From Shigella phage ESh9: DNA of 39,308 nt. Below are positions 1 through 39,308 of this stretch, piece after piece (within the stretch, counting starts at the first letter, position 1; each line of letters opens with the position of its first letter). The translations under genes were made by a program, and so were the position numbers. The DNA lies in the sequence record ON528722. One strand, written 5' to 3'. A model generated the notes under the pieces. It was not told the origin of the DNA, did not search any database, and saw nothing but the letters and a program-made list of their open reading frames with translations.

Positions 1-732
1 GGAAACAGCGGCACGGTCAGCAGAGTCTTTAGCCTCATTCCGGTATGACATGGAGTGAAGCGCGTAGGTTCGTGATGATTCTAGATTTGGCTCCACAGCG
101 GTTTCCTTAACGGCCCACTGTTTTGATAACTCAGCAGACCCAGCAGAAGAGCTTGCAGAGCTTGCAGATGCGTTCGCAGAGTTGTTCGCATCGTTTGCAC
201 GAGCGGTCGCACGGTCAGCTTCCTGTTTCGCTCGATTCGCAGAGTTCAACGCAGAGTCGTTCCACCGTTGGATTTGACCTAAGTTGATTGCGTCACCTAC
301 ATCTTGCGCATCCGCAACGTTCACAATACGACGACCACGAGCATCCAAGTTCCCATCATTGTTAACGCCAATTGTATCAGCGGTAAGGTCACGGGCTTCC
401 TCAGCAACGTGAAGGGTCTGAACCTGAGATATGTTCAAATCATATGCCCGCAGGATAGAGCCGTCGGTAAAGTCAACCAGACGGTCTGTAGCGGAGGTGA
501 ATCGCCTGATTTCAATCAAAGTATATCCGTCCGCTGGCCCCAATGCTCTCGTTGTAGAGATTGTGGTCTTAGTCGCAAAACGATAGTCTTGATTCAAGAT
601 GAGTTCCTTTCGGTCAACGCCGATAAGTGTCACTCGGACGAACTTACGAGCCAGATACTCAAACGGAATATTGAAGTCCGTAGTGGAGCCATCCAGCGGG
701 TAAGTCATCACGGTCTTAATAGTTGTAGCCAT
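1..732 (-). CDS. 17: Tail fiber gp17, N-terminal part (ATG at 732; continues in frame into 38091..39308 if the window is circular)
   Basis: SD GGAGGT then ATG at 732; translation MATTIKTVMTYPLDGSTTDFNIPFEYLARKF... matches the recalled T7/T3 gp17 N-terminal anchor; no stop before position 1. Confidence 0.85.
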   Translation of the reverse strand, partial: MATTIKTVMTYPLDGSTTDFNIPFEYLARKFVRVTLIGVDRKELILNQDYRFATKTTISTTRALGPADGYTLIEIRRFTSATDRLVDFTDGSILRAYDLNISQVQTLHVAEEARDLTADTIGVNNDGNLDARGRRIVNVADAQDVGDAINLGQIQRWNDSALNSANRAKQEADRATARANDANNSANASASSASSSAGSAELSKQWAVKETAVEPNLESSRTYALHSMSYRNEAKDSADRAAVS

Positions 733-785: not shown

Positions 786-808
786 TCTCCCTTTAGTGAG
801 GGTTTATT
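786..808 (-). promoter_or_regulatory. T3-type phage RNAP promoter upstream of gene 17 (one-mismatch variant)
   Basis: Reverse complement reads AATAAACCCTCACTAAAGGGAGA; overlaps the gene 16 stop. Confidence 0.7.
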
Positions 809-3800
809 GGCGAGGGCGTGTTGCATCATCCTTAATCTTGATGCCCTGCTCTTCGAAGATGTGCATAATCAACTGTTGTGTCAGCGGGTCATTGGGGACA
901 AGCTCACGCATGGAGTTGAACACACCAGTACGGAACTCTACCTCACTCTGCTTACCATCAGAGCTAAGTAGCGTAGAGGCATTCATGGCGGTAGACCCAA
1001 TGTTCCCAACTAGTCCTACAGCTGGTACTTGGTTGGATATCGCCCCTACTATGTTACCCGCAACCTCCTTACCAGTCCAAGCCTTGTTGCGGTCACGTTC
1101 GGTCTTTTCCTTTGGTAACACCGTTGAGCGGGTGTACTGGTAGGTATCATTACCGAACAAGCCACCAATCATATCATAGACAGACAGTGGGGAACCAAGG
1201 TGTGAACTTCTGGATAATGACGCGTGGGCAATCATTTTAGGGTCAAGAGCATTCTTGAGGTACTCCTTACGCTTGTGCTCCTGTAGGCCGTAAGCCTTCA
1301 AGTGCGCCTGAGCAACATAGTAACCACCAGCCAGACCCATAGAGATGATTGCAGTCAGCGCAGAATCGATAGCCCTGTTGTTCTTAGTTGCGTCATAGAA
1401 CAACCTAACGAAGCGCGAGTTAAGAGACTTGATTACGAAGTTCTTAAACTGCATCACCATCTTGACAGCCGCTCCGTAAGCCTTGGTGTCCTGTGAGGAA
1501 ACCTTATGCGGCCTAAGGATAGTCTCATCAGCAACCTTATCAGCCAGACGCCATAAGTCCATAGTCCGTGGGTCATTAGCAAAAGCCTGTTTGTCCCGGA
1601 TTGTAAACTTACCATCAGCATCACGAGTAGCGTGGTCACGGAACAACTGCTTTATTCCCTTCCACTGCTCAGGTGACACAGAGGCAGACTTAAGGTAATT
1701 CGCTTTACCGAACTTAGAGCCTTTCCCAGCGAGCGCTGCCCCAGCCACATCACCCAGTACACCCTGTCTGGCAGCATCGATGATGTAGTTAGAGGTTCCA
1801 TTAAGCAGCATCGTCCAAGGTGAACGCGCAGACAATTCCTGAGTGCCGAAGCGAATAGTCCCAACCACATTAGCCACCACTGCGTTAGTGTCAGTAGACT
1901 CCCGAAGGCGACGTATATGGTCTTCACGCCCCGGACGGATAAGCTGGTCTAGTTCCTTCCCGAACACCATACCATGAATCTCCTTAATCTCAGAGCCACT
2001 CAATGGCCTACTCCTGCTTACCCAATCGTTAAGCAGTGGGATTCCATGAAGTACCGCAGAGGTGTTTCCTTTACTCAACATAGCAGCAACCTCTGTGAAG
2101 TTCTGGAACGGCATGTAGAAGTTCTTAGCGAAGAAAGCCAAGTCAGTCATGGAGCGAAGAATCGTACCGAAAGCTCCCTCTGGGTTCATGCGGGCACGAC
2201 CAGTCAGAATCTTCACGGTGTCCTTGAGTGCTTCGACTTCACCTTTCAGTGAGCCGTTACCCTCAGACTGCTTGTCCAGCGCCATGATTTCATCTTTCAG
2301 TTCCTTCGTCGTCTTACCCGAACCACCCATGATAGCCACGTCACCATCAACTCGACGGTCATAAGCAGGAAGAATGTCAGCCATATCGTAGGTACGCAGG
2401 TCGTTCACAGAGAACGTGCTACCATCCGGGAGAGTCACAGCCATGTCGCTGTCGAACATGTTACGGGCCTCCAAGAAGTTATTGTTCTCGATGCCAACCA
2501 GACCCTCAAGGTTTTCATCAATGATAGAGGATGCAGTGAATTGGTCAGTGTGCGATATACCGTAGGCTTTATCCATGGCGTACTTCTCAGCCATCTGACG
2601 CAGCATCGCCTCTTCGTCTACCTTAGGTTCCACCTTCTCACCAGTGCCAAACTTCTGACGCTCTGAGGGCTTCGCTGGGGCAGAGTCATAGGCTTTACGG
2701 AATGCACGACCATCTGGTGTGCGAACACCACCAACAGTCTCATCCGTACCGCGATACACGTAGTCAGGACTCTCGGTCTCCGCAATGCGATACATCTCGG
2801 TTGCGATACCCTTACGGCGGTACTTCTCGGACACTTCCAGGCTCGGGTTCTGCCACACATCGCCGTCACGTTTAGCGAACTCTACGCTACCCACATGCTC
2901 ACCTTTCTTAGTGAACACGTCGACTGCGAACTCAGCGCCTTCAGCCGTCTTCGCGGTATAGTACACAAAGTCACCATCCACCTTGTACGGAGTCTCGCCT
3001 GAGTAGTCACGCTTACCTGCGAAGTAGTCACCCTGTAGCTCACCATTGGTGACCTTTGTGACACTAGCGGAGTTACCGCCAGTGACTAGGGAGTCAGGCA
3101 TGGCAGGAGTCGCCTCAGAGCCACGCAGGAAGTTCTCAGCGTCCGCAGCAGCTTGTGCTCCTTTGGTTGCCTTCTCGAACTCGTCAGCGTGAAGCTCTCG
3201 GAGGTACTCATCGACTCTCGCCTTGACTTCTGGACGAGCGCGGTAAGATGTAAGCCACGACTCTGCAATTGCCCGTTGTAGTCCCTCGTTACCGTAGCGA
3301 CTCACCATGTACAACTTTATAGCTCGGTCATATACATTAGGCACGTAGGTTCCGTTATGGCGTGAGCCGGGGAATATGCTACGAGCTTTGACGTTCCCGA
3401 AGATAGCAGGGTTTTCCATGAGTTCGCGCTTGAGGTCGAAGTGTTGTTTCAGGATATCCATCACCTTACGTTCTCCCTTTGTGAGTCCTGATTGTAGCTC
3501 TGGTCTCTCAATCGCTAAGGCAGCACGCTTATAGATTTCCTGTCGTACTTCCTTACGGCTCATCTTCACACCACCTGTAGAGAACTCAGGGTCTTTCATT
3601 GCAGTACGCACAGCATCATAAAGCTGATTGTAGGTGCGCTGATTGTTCGCGTGGAGCCGCTCCTTAATGTCAGAAGCAGTAGCACCGAACTTACCGGAAG
3701 TCCCTGACTCCATGCCAGTTGGAGAACGCACAAGGTCACTCGCAATGGAGCGAACAGTCGGGTTCTCAGAGCGGAGAGTCTTCAAGCCAATCTCAGTGAA

Positions 3801-5333
3801 ACCACCCAAAGAGATACCACGAGCGGCACGCTCAGGGTTGACCTCCTCGAACTCGCTAAGAGTCTGAGGGTTCAGCGGGTTGGTGTCGCTAAGGATTTGA
3901 CCTTGAGGCAACACAACGGCACCCGGCTCAGTTTCAAGTGGAGAATAGTTCACCCCGGCATGTTCCCCATCAAAGGAGCGACCATCTGTTGGCATACGTG
4001 TTAAGTCCTCGCCACCAGCTTGAAAGGCAGACTCACGCGCCTCCAGTCGAGTAGCAATGCGGTCGAAGTCGTTACTAACTTGACCAGCGCGAACACGGCC
4101 CAAGGCTGCACTCACACCATCAGCTATTGCGCTCATCCCGGCCCCGAACATAAGACCACCAAGGATTGCATCTTGATAGTGCGCCTCACCACCAGCAACG
4201 GATGTACGAACAGCTTCTGAAACTGCGCTCAAGGCTGCACTTTGGGCACCAACAACGAACGCCTTGTTTACCACCTTGAGACCCTTTCCAGCAACACCAA
4301 CAAGCGGCACATAGCTCAATGGGTCCACACCAGCCCCAACGATTCCACCAACCAACTTCGCTCCCACGCCAGCACCTTGAGTCTTCGCAGCCATAGCCGC
4401 ATTCTCATTAGCCAGTTTAATCAGGTCATCCAAATTCTCTGGGTCTCCTCCAGTAACAACGTTGATGTAGTTTGGGTCTTTTACCTCGTTACGGATACGC
4501 TCTAATTGCTCAGTCGTCCATGTAGTGCTGTTCCATCGAGTTGGGGTAATAGCGTCCTTGAAGATGTCAAAACTATCATCAAAACGCGCAGCATTGAAGG
4601 CAACACCCAATAGCGAGTTATGAAGCTCGGCACTTGTGGTGTCCTTTATCCCGAAGAATGTTGAACGGTTTTCATATTCCTCAACGGTAGTTCCATGTTT
4701 ATCGTAGAAATCCTTAGTGAACGGTACGGCAGGGGCCTGTTGTTCCACACCCTCCAGCTTAAAGCCAGTTGATTGTGGAAGCTCAGTTCCTACCTTCCCG
4801 GCCTTACCGATTCCAGCAAAGGCGTCCTCAGCGGGAATCCCTTTAGCCTTTGGGGTTATCCCACCGAACGCCTCCAAGTCTCCCTTGCGCGGGCTGTTAG
4901 CCACATCGAGAAGTTTACGCATGTAGTTGCGACCCTCCTCGCTGATAGAGGCCCAATCGCCTCGGTCATAAGCCTGCATTTGTGGAGCGCCATTGCGTCC
5001 CTCTCCTTGGTTGTACGCTAGGGCCGCTTTGAGTTCATCCCCGTCGTATTTCCTAACGAGGTCGCTCAGGTGGCGAGCGGCTGCGTCCACAGCCAACTCA
5101 GGGTTGAATCTCTCATCGTCATCTCCCCCTGTAACCTTGAGTCCAAGCCCCGATGCCGTACCTTTAGTGAACTGCATTAGACCTAATGGCCCGGTAGGGC
5201 TTTTGGCTTTCGGATTGAAGCCAGACTCGTTGAACGCCAATTTACGAAGCAGGCCATAGGAGACCCCATGTTCATCTGCCGCTTTCTGAAATAACCCATC
5301 ATACTCAGATGGTTTCGTCTTGTCGTAGCTCAT
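804..5333 (-). CDS. 16: Internal virion (core/ejection) protein gp16 with N-terminal lytic transglycosylase domain; 1509 aa, carries an internal insertion of about 195 aa
   Basis: N-terminus MSYDKTKPSEYDGLFQKAADEHGVSYGLLRKLA...GPLGLMQFT is the T7 gp16 SLT domain; recalled T7 gp16 similarity along the whole length except aa 716-912. Confidence 0.9.
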   Translation of the reverse strand: MSYDKTKPSEYDGLFQKAADEHGVSYGLLRKLAFNESGFNPKAKSPTGPLGLMQFTKGTASGLGLKVTGGDDDERFNPELAVDAAARHLSDLVRKYDGDELKAALAYNQGEGRNGAPQMQAYDRGDWASISEEGRNYMRKLLDVANSPRKGDLEAFGGITPKAKGIPAEDAFAGIGKAGKVGTELPQSTGFKLEGVEQQAPAVPFTKDFYDKHGTTVEEYENRSTFFGIKDTTSAELHNSLLGVAFNAARFDDSFDIFKDAITPTRWNSTTWTTEQLERIRNEVKDPNYINVVTGGDPENLDDLIKLANENAAMAAKTQGAGVGAKLVGGIVGAGVDPLSYVPLVGVAGKGLKVVNKAFVVGAQSAALSAVSEAVRTSVAGGEAHYQDAILGGLMFGAGMSAIADGVSAALGRVRAGQVSNDFDRIATRLEARESAFQAGGEDLTRMPTDGRSFDGEHAGVNYSPLETEPGAVVLPQGQILSDTNPLNPQTLSEFEEVNPERAARGISLGGFTEIGLKTLRSENPTVRSIASDLVRSPTGMESGTSGKFGATASDIKERLHANNQRTYNQLYDAVRTAMKDPEFSTGGVKMSRKEVRQEIYKRAALAIERPELQSGLTKGERKVMDILKQHFDLKRELMENPAIFGNVKARSIFPGSRHNGTYVPNVYDRAIKLYMVSRYGNEGLQRAIAESWLTSYRARPEVKARVDEYLRELHADEFEKATKGAQAAADAENFLRGSEATPAMPDSLVTGGNSASVTKVTNGELQGDYFAGKRDYSGETPYKVDGDFVYYTAKTAEGAEFAVDVFTKKGEHVGSVEFAKRDGDVWQNPSLEVSEKYRRKGIATEMYRIAETESPDYVYRGTDETVGGVRTPDGRAFRKAYDSAPAKPSERQKFGTGEKVEPKVDEEAMLRQMAEKYAMDKAYGISHTDQFTASSIIDENLEGLVGIENNNFLEARNMFDSDMAVTLPDGSTFSVNDLRTYDMADILPAYDRRVDGDVAIMGGSGKTTKELKDEIMALDKQSEGNGSLKGEVEALKDTVKILTGRARMNPEGAFGTILRSMTDLAFFAKNFYMPFQNFTEVAAMLSKGNTSAVLHGIPLLNDWVSRSRPLSGSEIKEIHGMVFGKELDQLIRPGREDHIRRLRESTDTNAVVANVVGTIRFGTQELSARSPWTMLLNGTSNYIIDAARQGVLGDVAGAALAGKGSKFGKANYLKSASVSPEQWKGIKQLFRDHATRDADGKFTIRDKQAFANDPRTMDLWRLADKVADETILRPHKVSSQDTKAYGAAVKMVMQFKNFVIKSLNSRFVRLFYDATKNNRAIDSALTAIISMGLAGGYYVAQAHLKAYGLQEHKRKEYLKNALDPKMIAHASLSRSSHLGSPLSVYDMIGGLFGNDTYQYTRSTVLPKEKTERDRNKAWTGKEVAGNIVGAISNQVPAVGLVGNIGSTAMNASTLLSSDGKQSEVEFRTGVFNSMRELVPNDPLTQQLIMHIFEEQGIKIKDDATRPRQ

Positions 5334-37875: not shown

Positions 37876-38079
37876 TTACTCCTTGTTTGCACGTTTCCAG
37901 TCAATAATTTTATCAACTACCTTGGCACCAATCTGAACCACTGTGTAGGCGATAGCTGCAACGTAGAACCATTCGTTTAACGATAGTCCCCAAAAGAGTC
38001 GGGCCGCACCATCAGCGACCCCTGTGCCAACAATAGGCGCAGCCTTAACGACCTCATTGTTGAAGTCGAAGGATAACAT
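37876..38079 (-). CDS. 17.5: Holin gp17.5
   Basis: 67 aa; MLSFDFNNEVVKAAPIVGTGVADGAARLFWGLSLNEWFYVAAIAYTVVQIGAKVV matches T7 holin. Confidence 0.92.
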   Translation of the reverse strand: MLSFDFNNEVVKAAPIVGTGVADGAARLFWGLSLNEWFYVAAIAYTVVQIGAKVVDKIIDWKRANKE

Positions 38080-38090
38080 TTAACACCTCC

Positions 38091-39308
38091 TTAGTCTGTC
38101 GTAAGTTTAGATTCAAGCTCCTGAACGCGAGCGTCTAGGTTCTTAACAAGCAGCATTAATCCGCCAATTATCTGGTTAGGGTCTGGAGACTGCATACCAT
38201 CGCTCATTATATCAACCGCCTCTGGCCAGATTCGAATCAAATCCTGTGTTATAAAACCAGCACGGGAGCGCTTACCAGTGATAGTAATGTCGCGTCCACG
38301 GTTATCCTTATATGCTGAATCCTTATACTTATAAGACACTGGTATGTATGCCCGAATGATGTTCAACATGTCGTCAGCAGAGCGAACAACCTTAATGTCT
38401 TCTTTCAGCCTTCTGTCTGACTGGAACCAGCGGAACCCAACGGATGTACCATCAACGTTACCCTCAATGTAGTCCGCGCCACGGCCTGTGTACAGGCGAA
38501 CCCCAGCAGGAGGTTTGGCGAATCTGTAGTTGTCGTTGAGCATTCCCCAAAGGTTGCCACCAACGTTGTTCCATACGCCACCGCTAAGGTTCCCATCTGG
38601 GTTTAGTATCGCGTTGCCCATTCCTGCGTAGAGGTTCTGACCAACGATATTGTTGTTCCCCTCAATGCGGGCACCGGAATGAACCTGTAGGTGGTTTGCG
38701 TGGAGCGCAGCGCCTCCGGTAATAACCACTCTACCAATCTCTACCGTGTTCTCAGCATTAACTGTGCGGAACACGAATCCGCCAGAACCAGCACCACGGT
38801 TGGTGATAAAGTTTGACTCACCGCTACCACCACTTTCGTTCCATCCAATATGTAGACCCTGCCGTTGTCCAACATGTTGTGGATTGTTGTCAATGTGGAG
38901 TCGGGACAGCTTATTATAAACGTTTGGTGATAGTGTTTGATTAATGCCTCCCTGAGCATATGTGACCCCAGCCACGGTGATGTTTCGCTGAGAGTACATA
39001 TCCCGCTTTGCGGTAATATCCCTTTCAACAATCAAGTCCTCTCCAACAAGCGCACCTTTCTGGATACTCGCCGCACCTGTGGAGACTAAACCACCGCCTG
39101 TGACGTTCTGGGTAGTCACGAGTGCCCCTTTGAACCACACGTTTACGCCTTCAACCTTGTCGATTGTACCAGCAAACTCATTCATGTTTCCCAGCTTACT
39201 AGCCTCAGTGATTGCTCTCTCCTCGGAGGCCTTAGCGTTGGTCTCTGATACCTTAGCGGCAGCAGCCGAGTTAGCAACGCTCCCTTCTGAGGCCTTAGCA
39301 TTGGTCTC
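38091..39308 (-). CDS. 17: Tail fiber gp17, C-terminal part: coiled-coil shaft, glycine-rich distal domain and C-terminal intramolecular-chaperone-like module
   Basis: Open frame runs off the window end; ...NMNEFAGTIDKVEGVNVWFKG aligns to T7 gp17 ...AGAIDKVDGTNVYWKG; the distal part differs from T7 and ends with an SDRRLKEDI module. Confidence 0.85.
   Translation of the reverse strand, partial: ETNAKASEGSVANSAAAAKVSETNAKASEERAITEASKLGNMNEFAGTIDKVEGVNVWFKGALVTTQNVTGGGLVSTGAASIQKGALVGEDLIVERDITAKRDMYSQRNITVAGVTYAQGGINQTLSPNVYNKLSRLHIDNNPQHVGQRQGLHIGWNESGGSGESNFITNRGAGSGGFVFRTVNAENTVEIGRVVITGGAALHANHLQVHSGARIEGNNNIVGQNLYAGMGNAILNPDGNLSGGVWNNVGGNLWGMLNDNYRFAKPPAGVRLYTGRGADYIEGNVDGTSVGFRWFQSDRRLKEDIKVVRSADDMLNIIRAYIPVSYKYKDSAYKDNRGRDITITGKRSRAGFITQDLIRIWPEAVDIMSDGMQSPDPNQIIGGLMLLVKNLDARVQELESKLTTD

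Follow-up and report, generated by a model that had tools for sequence, protein, structure and literature searches.

The tail fiber protein gp17 of Shigella phage ESh9 very likely ends in a functional intramolecular chaperone, an auto-processing domain (MEROPS S74, Pfam PF13884) that comprises residues 541–649. The DNA analyzed, referred to here as the window, is the whole stretch of 39,308 nucleotides in sequence record ON528722. The last 109 residues of gp17 begin with the peptide SDRRLKEDIKVV (residues 541–552). On the minus strand, the codon for Ser541 (TCA) is found at 38418–38420, the codon for the last residue, Asp649, at 38094–38096, and the stop codon at 38091–38093. The interval 38094–38420, to which a first-pass annotation had assigned a self-cleaving module of this kind, is thus exactly the last 109 codons of gp17.

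The genome in the window is that of a T7-like podovirus resembling T3 and phiYeO3-12, and it is presented as a reverse complement that is circularly permuted. Along the minus strand, the genes run from gp17 through the holin, gp18, Rz, gp19, the early genes, the RNA polymerase, the DNA polymerase, the portal, capsid, tail tube, and gp13–gp16, and then to gp17 again. Because the genome is circularly permuted, gp17 is split over both ends of the window. The N-terminal part of the tail fiber (residues 1–244) is encoded at 1–732 and the C-terminal part (residues 245–649, followed by the stop codon) at 38091–39308, both on the minus strand. When the two ends are joined in frame, positions 732 to 1 (residues 1–244) continue into positions 39308 to 38094 (residues 245–649), and an uninterrupted open reading frame of 649 residues is obtained. 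The joined protein is collinear, with a gap-free junction, with the gp17 proteins of phiYeO3-12 (645 residues), AP5 (648 residues), and IME305 (648 residues), and it matches phrog_9502, "tail fiber protein", over its full length with a score of 1264 bits. The listing of open reading frames gives only a fragment of gp17 with 364 residues (38091–39185), which starts at the internal Met286. This fragment was rejected as a whole gene, since its frame is open to the edge of the window and resumes at the other end. Downstream of gp17 is the gene for the class II holin, gp17.5 (37876–38079, minus strand), which starts 12 nucleotides past the gp17 stop codon, and the same gene order is found in phiYeO3-12, AP5, and IME305. 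The location of gp17 between gp16 and the holin gene is that expected for the gp17 of a T7-like phage (Studiervirinae).

The core of the Peptidase_S74/intramolecular chaperone domain was located with Pfam family PF13884 at residues 541–609 (38214–38420, minus strand). The first-pass annotation had recognized an S74-like signature at the start of the module and had proposed a search with the Peptidase_S74 profile as a check. With the whole of gp17, this search returned an E-value of 1.7e-12 and a score of 47.8 bits, relative to a gathering cut-off of 22, and the match covered profile positions 1–57 of 58. The E-value for the 109 residues alone was 7.9e-14. Residues 521–649 were also used as the query in an exhaustive HMMER scan against 1.8 billion representative sequences, which returned 168 homologues at E ≤ 1e-3. 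The best 150 of these 168 were aligned with the sequence from the window, giving 151 sequences for the analysis of conservation. The serine at 541 and the aspartate at 542 are each found in 149 of the 151 sequences, and the lysine at 546 and the glycine at 595 each in 150. Ala598, Gln599, and Pro606 are each kept in at least 145 sequences, and Gly615 in 139. Lys546 (38403–38405, minus strand) is located five residues past Ser541 and, on the basis of conservation, is predicted to be the general base of a Ser-Lys dyad. Ser541 and Lys546 have the S-x4-K spacing of the catalytic dyad that marks the N-terminal border of S74 domains, and the dyad is near-invariant in the alignment. The signature is therefore borne out by the profile score and by the conservation of the dyad.

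The structural comparisons lead to the same family. A phmmer search of the PDB with residues 521–649 (129 residues) gave only marginal matches. A profile built from 25 sequences identified the fiber in 8jov (E-value of 3e-19), S16 gp37 (6f45), the intramolecular chaperone (ICA) of MyRF (7dc3), the GA-1 appendage (3gud), and 8hqz, a T5-type L-shaped fiber. The profile matches to chaperone domains span E-values from 3e-19 to 8e-8. The crystallized, released chaperone of the GA-1 appendage opens with the motif SDERHK. An AlphaFold model of residues 529–649 (a construct of 121 residues) had a mean pLDDT of 92.3 and consists of an alpha/beta body followed by a C-terminal helix of 28 residues. The helix is formed by residues 621–648 (38097–38180, minus strand; construct residues 93–120), with pLDDT values above 90, and carries hydrophobic residues with a spacing of 3–4 (L628, V632, L635, V639, L642, and L646). 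From the model, it is predicted to form the trimeric coiled coil at the center of the chaperone, as the equivalent helix does in the structures of T5 and MyRF. The modelled fold of residues 529–649 agrees with the solved chaperone domains, as membership in S74 calls for, and the domain has the position expected of S74, since it constitutes the last 109 residues of gp17. In 111 of the best 150 homologues, no more than 15 residues separate the end of the domain from the C-terminus.

These results bear on whether SDRRLK at the start of the segment is a chance motif in a C-terminus that is simply part of an ordinary fiber tip. No point in favor of this explanation was found. The one result that could be taken that way is that a word-indexed search for homologues of the 109 residues alone gave no matches, but this reflects a limit of the tool, since the exhaustive HMMER scan gave 168; a homologue search with the 364-residue query found 61. 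The E-values of 1e-12 to 1e-14 for the HMM, the profile matches in the PDB down to 3e-19, the agreement of the fold with solved chaperone domains, and the 168 homologues at E ≤ 1e-3 all stand against a coincidence. Chance similarity was rejected on these four lines of evidence and must be regarded as exceedingly improbable.

The predicted scissile bond is Gln540–Ser541 (38418–38423, minus strand), where the codon for Gln540 occupies 38421–38423 and that for the nucleophile, Ser541, occupies 38418–38420. Cleavage at this bond would leave a mature fiber that ends at Gln540, and Ser541 would leave on the chaperone. The two products have computed masses of 57.63 kDa (residues 1–540) and 12.43 kDa (residues 541–649). 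Gln540 was assigned as the mature end on two grounds, the analogy to T5 and K1F and the fragment mass of the phiYeO3-12 protein. Autoproteolysis of recombinant phiYeO3-12 Gp17 was previously observed by SDS-PAGE, with a product of ~58 kDa and a by-product of 11 kDa (PMC7582827), and the fragments were determined by mass spectrometry to be 57.423 and 12.242 kDa (PMC8739404). The S74 domain of phiYeO3-12 Gp17 comprises residues 539–645, and the chaperone is annotated there in UniProt. The computed mass of Ser539–Thr645 is 12.259 kDa, relative to 12.172 kDa for a cut one residue later and 12.387 kDa for a cut one residue earlier. A cut directly before the serine of phiYeO3-12 fits best, because 12.259 kDa is nearest to the measured value of 12.242 kDa, which is 17 Da lower.

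Ser541 and Lys546 correspond to the Ser-Lys dyads identified in the family, S911/K916 in endoNF, S587/K592 in MyRF, and S1264/K1269 in T5, which are competent only in the folded trimer. The three chains of endoNF, T5 pb1, and MyRF are set in register by a trimeric coiled coil built from their C-terminal helices. The cut in T5 pb1 is made between Thr1263 and Ser1264, and the serine departs with the chaperone. The active site is completed by a folding-sensor arginine from the neighboring chain, R897 in endoNF and R1250 in T5, which precedes the serine by 14 residues. An arginine was sought at −14 from Ser541 and was not found, as this position is occupied by Gly527, which counts against the reading as a self-processing domain. 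Arginines that are invariant in the family occur nearby at −4 (R537) and −21 (R520). The sensor arginine is not universal in S74, since MyRF uses K671 instead.

By homology with endoNF, T5 pb1, and phiYeO3-12 Gp17, a mechanism can be proposed for gp17. The C-terminal coiled coil of the chaperone would bring three nascent gp17 chains into register, and this registration would nucleate the folding of the intertwined distal fiber upstream. Ser541 would be placed beside Lys546 only in the correctly folded trimer, after which the Gln540–Ser541 peptide bond would be cut in each chain and the 12.4 kDa chaperone (residues 541–649) would be let go. The mature virion fiber would then consist of residues 1–540 (57.6 kDa), with the receptor-binding tip free. 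For the gp17 analyzed here, we infer cleavage, the exact bond, the dependence on trimerization, and the need to remove the chaperone before receptor binding by analogy with these systems. On the same analogy, the chaperone very probably detaches itself by cleavage after trimerization of the fiber.

Two other fates of the domain were considered. The S74-like domain might remain uncleaved and stay on the virion fiber, where it would serve as a permanent trimerization cap or belong to the receptor-binding tip. Among the 150 distant homologues examined (the best 150 of 168), 21 have more than 50 residues after the domain, which would be compatible with retention. The fiber of Citrobacter phage Citrof5 (locus coordinates 1441–3495) also has an S74-like domain, with the motif SDERHK and a coiled-coil helix, followed by a charged tail of ~65 residues. 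The chaperone of Citrof5 is not strictly terminal, because the charged tail follows the coiled-coil helix, and together with the 21 tailed homologues it indicates that not every member of the S74 family is a simple, terminal, and disposable module. In gp17, however, the catalytic serine and lysine are both intact, the module of phiYeO3-12, which is 90% identical, does cleave in E. coli, and T5 pb1, if uncleaved, is unable to compete for the receptor. Given the intact dyad and the behavior of the orthologue, a retained cap that does not cleave is quite unlikely. The domain might instead owe its removal not to its own Ser-Lys dyad but to a protease of the host or another protease of the phage. 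No point in support of this was found. In E. coli, recombinant phiYeO3-12 Gp17 cleaves itself without other phage proteins, and a Ser-to-Ala substitution blocks cutting in T5 and in MyRF, which makes cleavage by another enzyme very improbable. Self-cleavage by Ser541 and Lys546 is thus the preferred reading of the domain.

The closest known systems are the Gp17 fibers of the Teetrevirus phages phiYeO3-12 and AP5 (Yersinia phage vB_YenP_AP5). These have the same layout as the fiber described here, with a T7-type N-terminus, a coiled shaft, a glycine-rich distal domain, and an S74 chaperone. The amino acid identity to phiYeO3-12 gp17 is 86% overall and 90% in the chaperone, and the corresponding values for AP5 are 91.2% and 97%. 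The motif at the cleavage site, VGFRWF-x-SDRRLKEDIKVVRSADDML, and the gene context, gp16-gp17-holin-gp18, are the same in both phages as in the window. The chaperone is also 92% identical to that of Enterobacter phage E-3, 90% identical to those of IME305 and phiYe-F10, and 82–89% identical to those found in Teseptimavirus (NC-A, 64795_ec1, Bas102, and HZ2R8), Berlinvirus (A7), and Apdecimavirus (AP10). The module therefore occurs in the fibers of four genera of the Studiervirinae, namely Teetrevirus, Teseptimavirus, Berlinvirus, and Apdecimavirus. The gp17 proteins of phiYeO3-12 and the Teseptimavirus NC-A were both found to contain Phage_T7_tail and Peptidase_S74 in the same Pfam scan. In the sequence record of Escherichia phage 64795_ec1, gp17 (952–2824) is annotated as two overlapping coding sequences, 952–1824 and 1799–2824, which points to a frameshift, or else to a sequencing error, in the fiber gene of that record. 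No entry identical to the exact 649-residue gp17 was found in a collection of 15 billion sequences. By sequence comparison, the gp17 in the window is a new allele, with best full-length identities of 92.0% (IME305) and 91.2% (AP5).

The more distant members of the family differ in their cargo and in details of the domain. The C-terminal chaperone (CIMCD) of endoNF, the endosialidase of K1F, is the founding member of MEROPS S74 (PDB 3GW6) and has a structure-based identity of ~13% to the domain described here. Its cargo is the stalk of a sialidase tailspike rather than a thin fiber, and its sensor arginine at −14 is without a counterpart in the gp17 of the window. The domain of T5 pb1 has 133 residues with long beta-hairpin "tentacles", whereas that of gp17 has 109 residues and the region aligned with the tentacles is short. 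T5 is a siphovirus, and the tip of pb1 has a different fold. The ICA of MyRF (PDB 7DC3) is eukaryotic and belongs to a membrane-bound transcription factor, in which cutting frees the N-terminal DNA-binding part and has no role in a virion.

The remainder of gp17 is T7-like at the N-terminus only. The tail-attachment domain (residues 1–155; 268–732, minus strand) matches Phage_T7_tail (PF03906) with an E-value of 7.8e-59, and the alanine/serine-rich coiled shaft begins within residues 1–244. The structure of T7 gp17 (PDB 7boz) aligns with residues 1–307 only (E-value of 7e-87), and within this segment the T7/T3 fibers and the fiber described here have in common the tail-attachment domain at the N-terminus and the proximal part of the shaft. 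Beyond this point, the T7 and T3 gp17 proteins end in gp37_trimer (PF20744) and gp37_C (PF12604), without an S74 module and without processing. Neither of these two T7/T3 tip domains was found in the gp17 of the window by Pfam, and neither T7 nor T3 gp17 gave an S74 match in the same scan. The statements in the first-pass annotation that canonical T7/T3 fibers lack the module and that the tip has been swapped both held up, as the sharing with T7 ends at residue 307 and the tip domains of T7/T3 are absent. The tip of gp17, judged from its sequence, belongs to a family other than the T7/T3 type.

The distal part of the predicted mature fiber (residues 286–540; 38421–39185, minus strand) is the presumed receptor-binding region. 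It is rich in glycine and asparagine and is the most variable stretch of the protein among relatives, with identities of 22–98%. A Pfam scan of residues 286–540 found no domain, and a PDB profile search with the same residues found nothing significant, the best match being a left-handed beta-helix acetyltransferase with an E-value of 0.27. The AlphaFold monomer of residues 286–649 was poor (pLDDT of 56.5 and pTM of 0.24), which is expected because the fiber is an intertwined trimer. The phiYeO3-12-like fiber type is widespread, and the structure of its tip is seemingly unsolved, since no solved relative was found in the PDB profile search. By analogy with phiYeO3-12 and Bas102, the fiber probably recognizes an O-antigen or LPS glycan as its receptor.

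The nucleotide identity of gp17 to known phages is patchy along the gene. In its backbone, the genome shares ~96% identity with Serratia phage 2050H2 and Citrobacter phage phiCFP-1, and the distal fibers of these two phages are only 32–76% identical to gp17 across residues 301–500. The chaperone is 82–97% identical across the four genera, with Citrof5 (Berlinvirus) an outlier at 41%, and residues 301–500 are roughly 45–60% identical in most of the eight full-length gp17 proteins compared across those genera. At the nucleotide level, residues 181–240 have 99–100% identity to the backbone relative phiCFP-1, residues 271–420 are nearest to Klebsiella phage IME305 (89–98%), and residues 450–649 are nearest to Yersinia phage AP5 (89–98%). 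A loop of the chaperone, residues 571–600, is a variable patch in the nucleotide identity. Such a pattern is commonly seen when receptor-binding cassettes are exchanged between conserved flanks. The chaperone segment, together with the N-terminal domain and the holin gene, could conceivably act as a recombination arm that moves the receptor-binding cassette between genera of the Studiervirinae, but we regard this proposal as doubtful. More speculatively, the 12.4 kDa chaperone trimer, once released, might go on to serve another function in the infected cell.

A separate observation was made in the neighboring gene for gp16, the internal virion protein D that is ejected into the host (804–5333, minus strand). 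This protein has 1509 residues and is 187 residues longer than those of its closest relatives (1322 residues), with an insertion at approximately 2595–3185. The extra segment (residues 717–913) matches the Pfam family Acetyltransf_1 (GNAT) with an E-value of 3.4e-5 and a score of 24.5 bits, relative to a cut-off of 20.7, and it holds an acetyl-CoA-type motif, R-R-K-G-I-A. The insert was found by tblastn in only 15 phage records, from phages of Klebsiella, E. coli, Yersinia, Shigella, Pectobacterium, and Enterobacter. It is located inside gp16 in all 15 records and is annotated as an acetyltransferase in none of them. The insertion appears to be GNAT-like and sporadic, and it is the chief side item of possible further interest.

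The earlier interpretation of the C-terminus of gp17 is supported overall. A fiber that ends in a chaperone is not unusual, since it is the standard, already published type of the phiYeO3-12-like phages. The finding is correct but already known, because the chaperone has been named for AP5, phiYeO3-12, AP10, and phiYe-F10 in a review of 2019 (PMC6950378) and has been reported for Bas102 (PMC11990801). The self-cleaving chaperone of this phage is therefore ordinary, as published work on close relatives already describes the module and demonstrates its self-cleavage, and no new biology follows from it, because the domain family, the mechanism, and the presence of the domain in this lineage of fibers have all been published. 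The value of the assignment is practical only. Annotators and engineers can expect the virion fiber to consist of residues 1–540. Recombinant production of the receptor-binding protein probably requires no separate chaperone gene, as with the Gp17 proteins of AP5 and phiYeO3-12, which have been made in this way. Tags placed at the C-terminus would be lost with cleavage, and swaps of the receptor-binding region should leave the chaperone attached.
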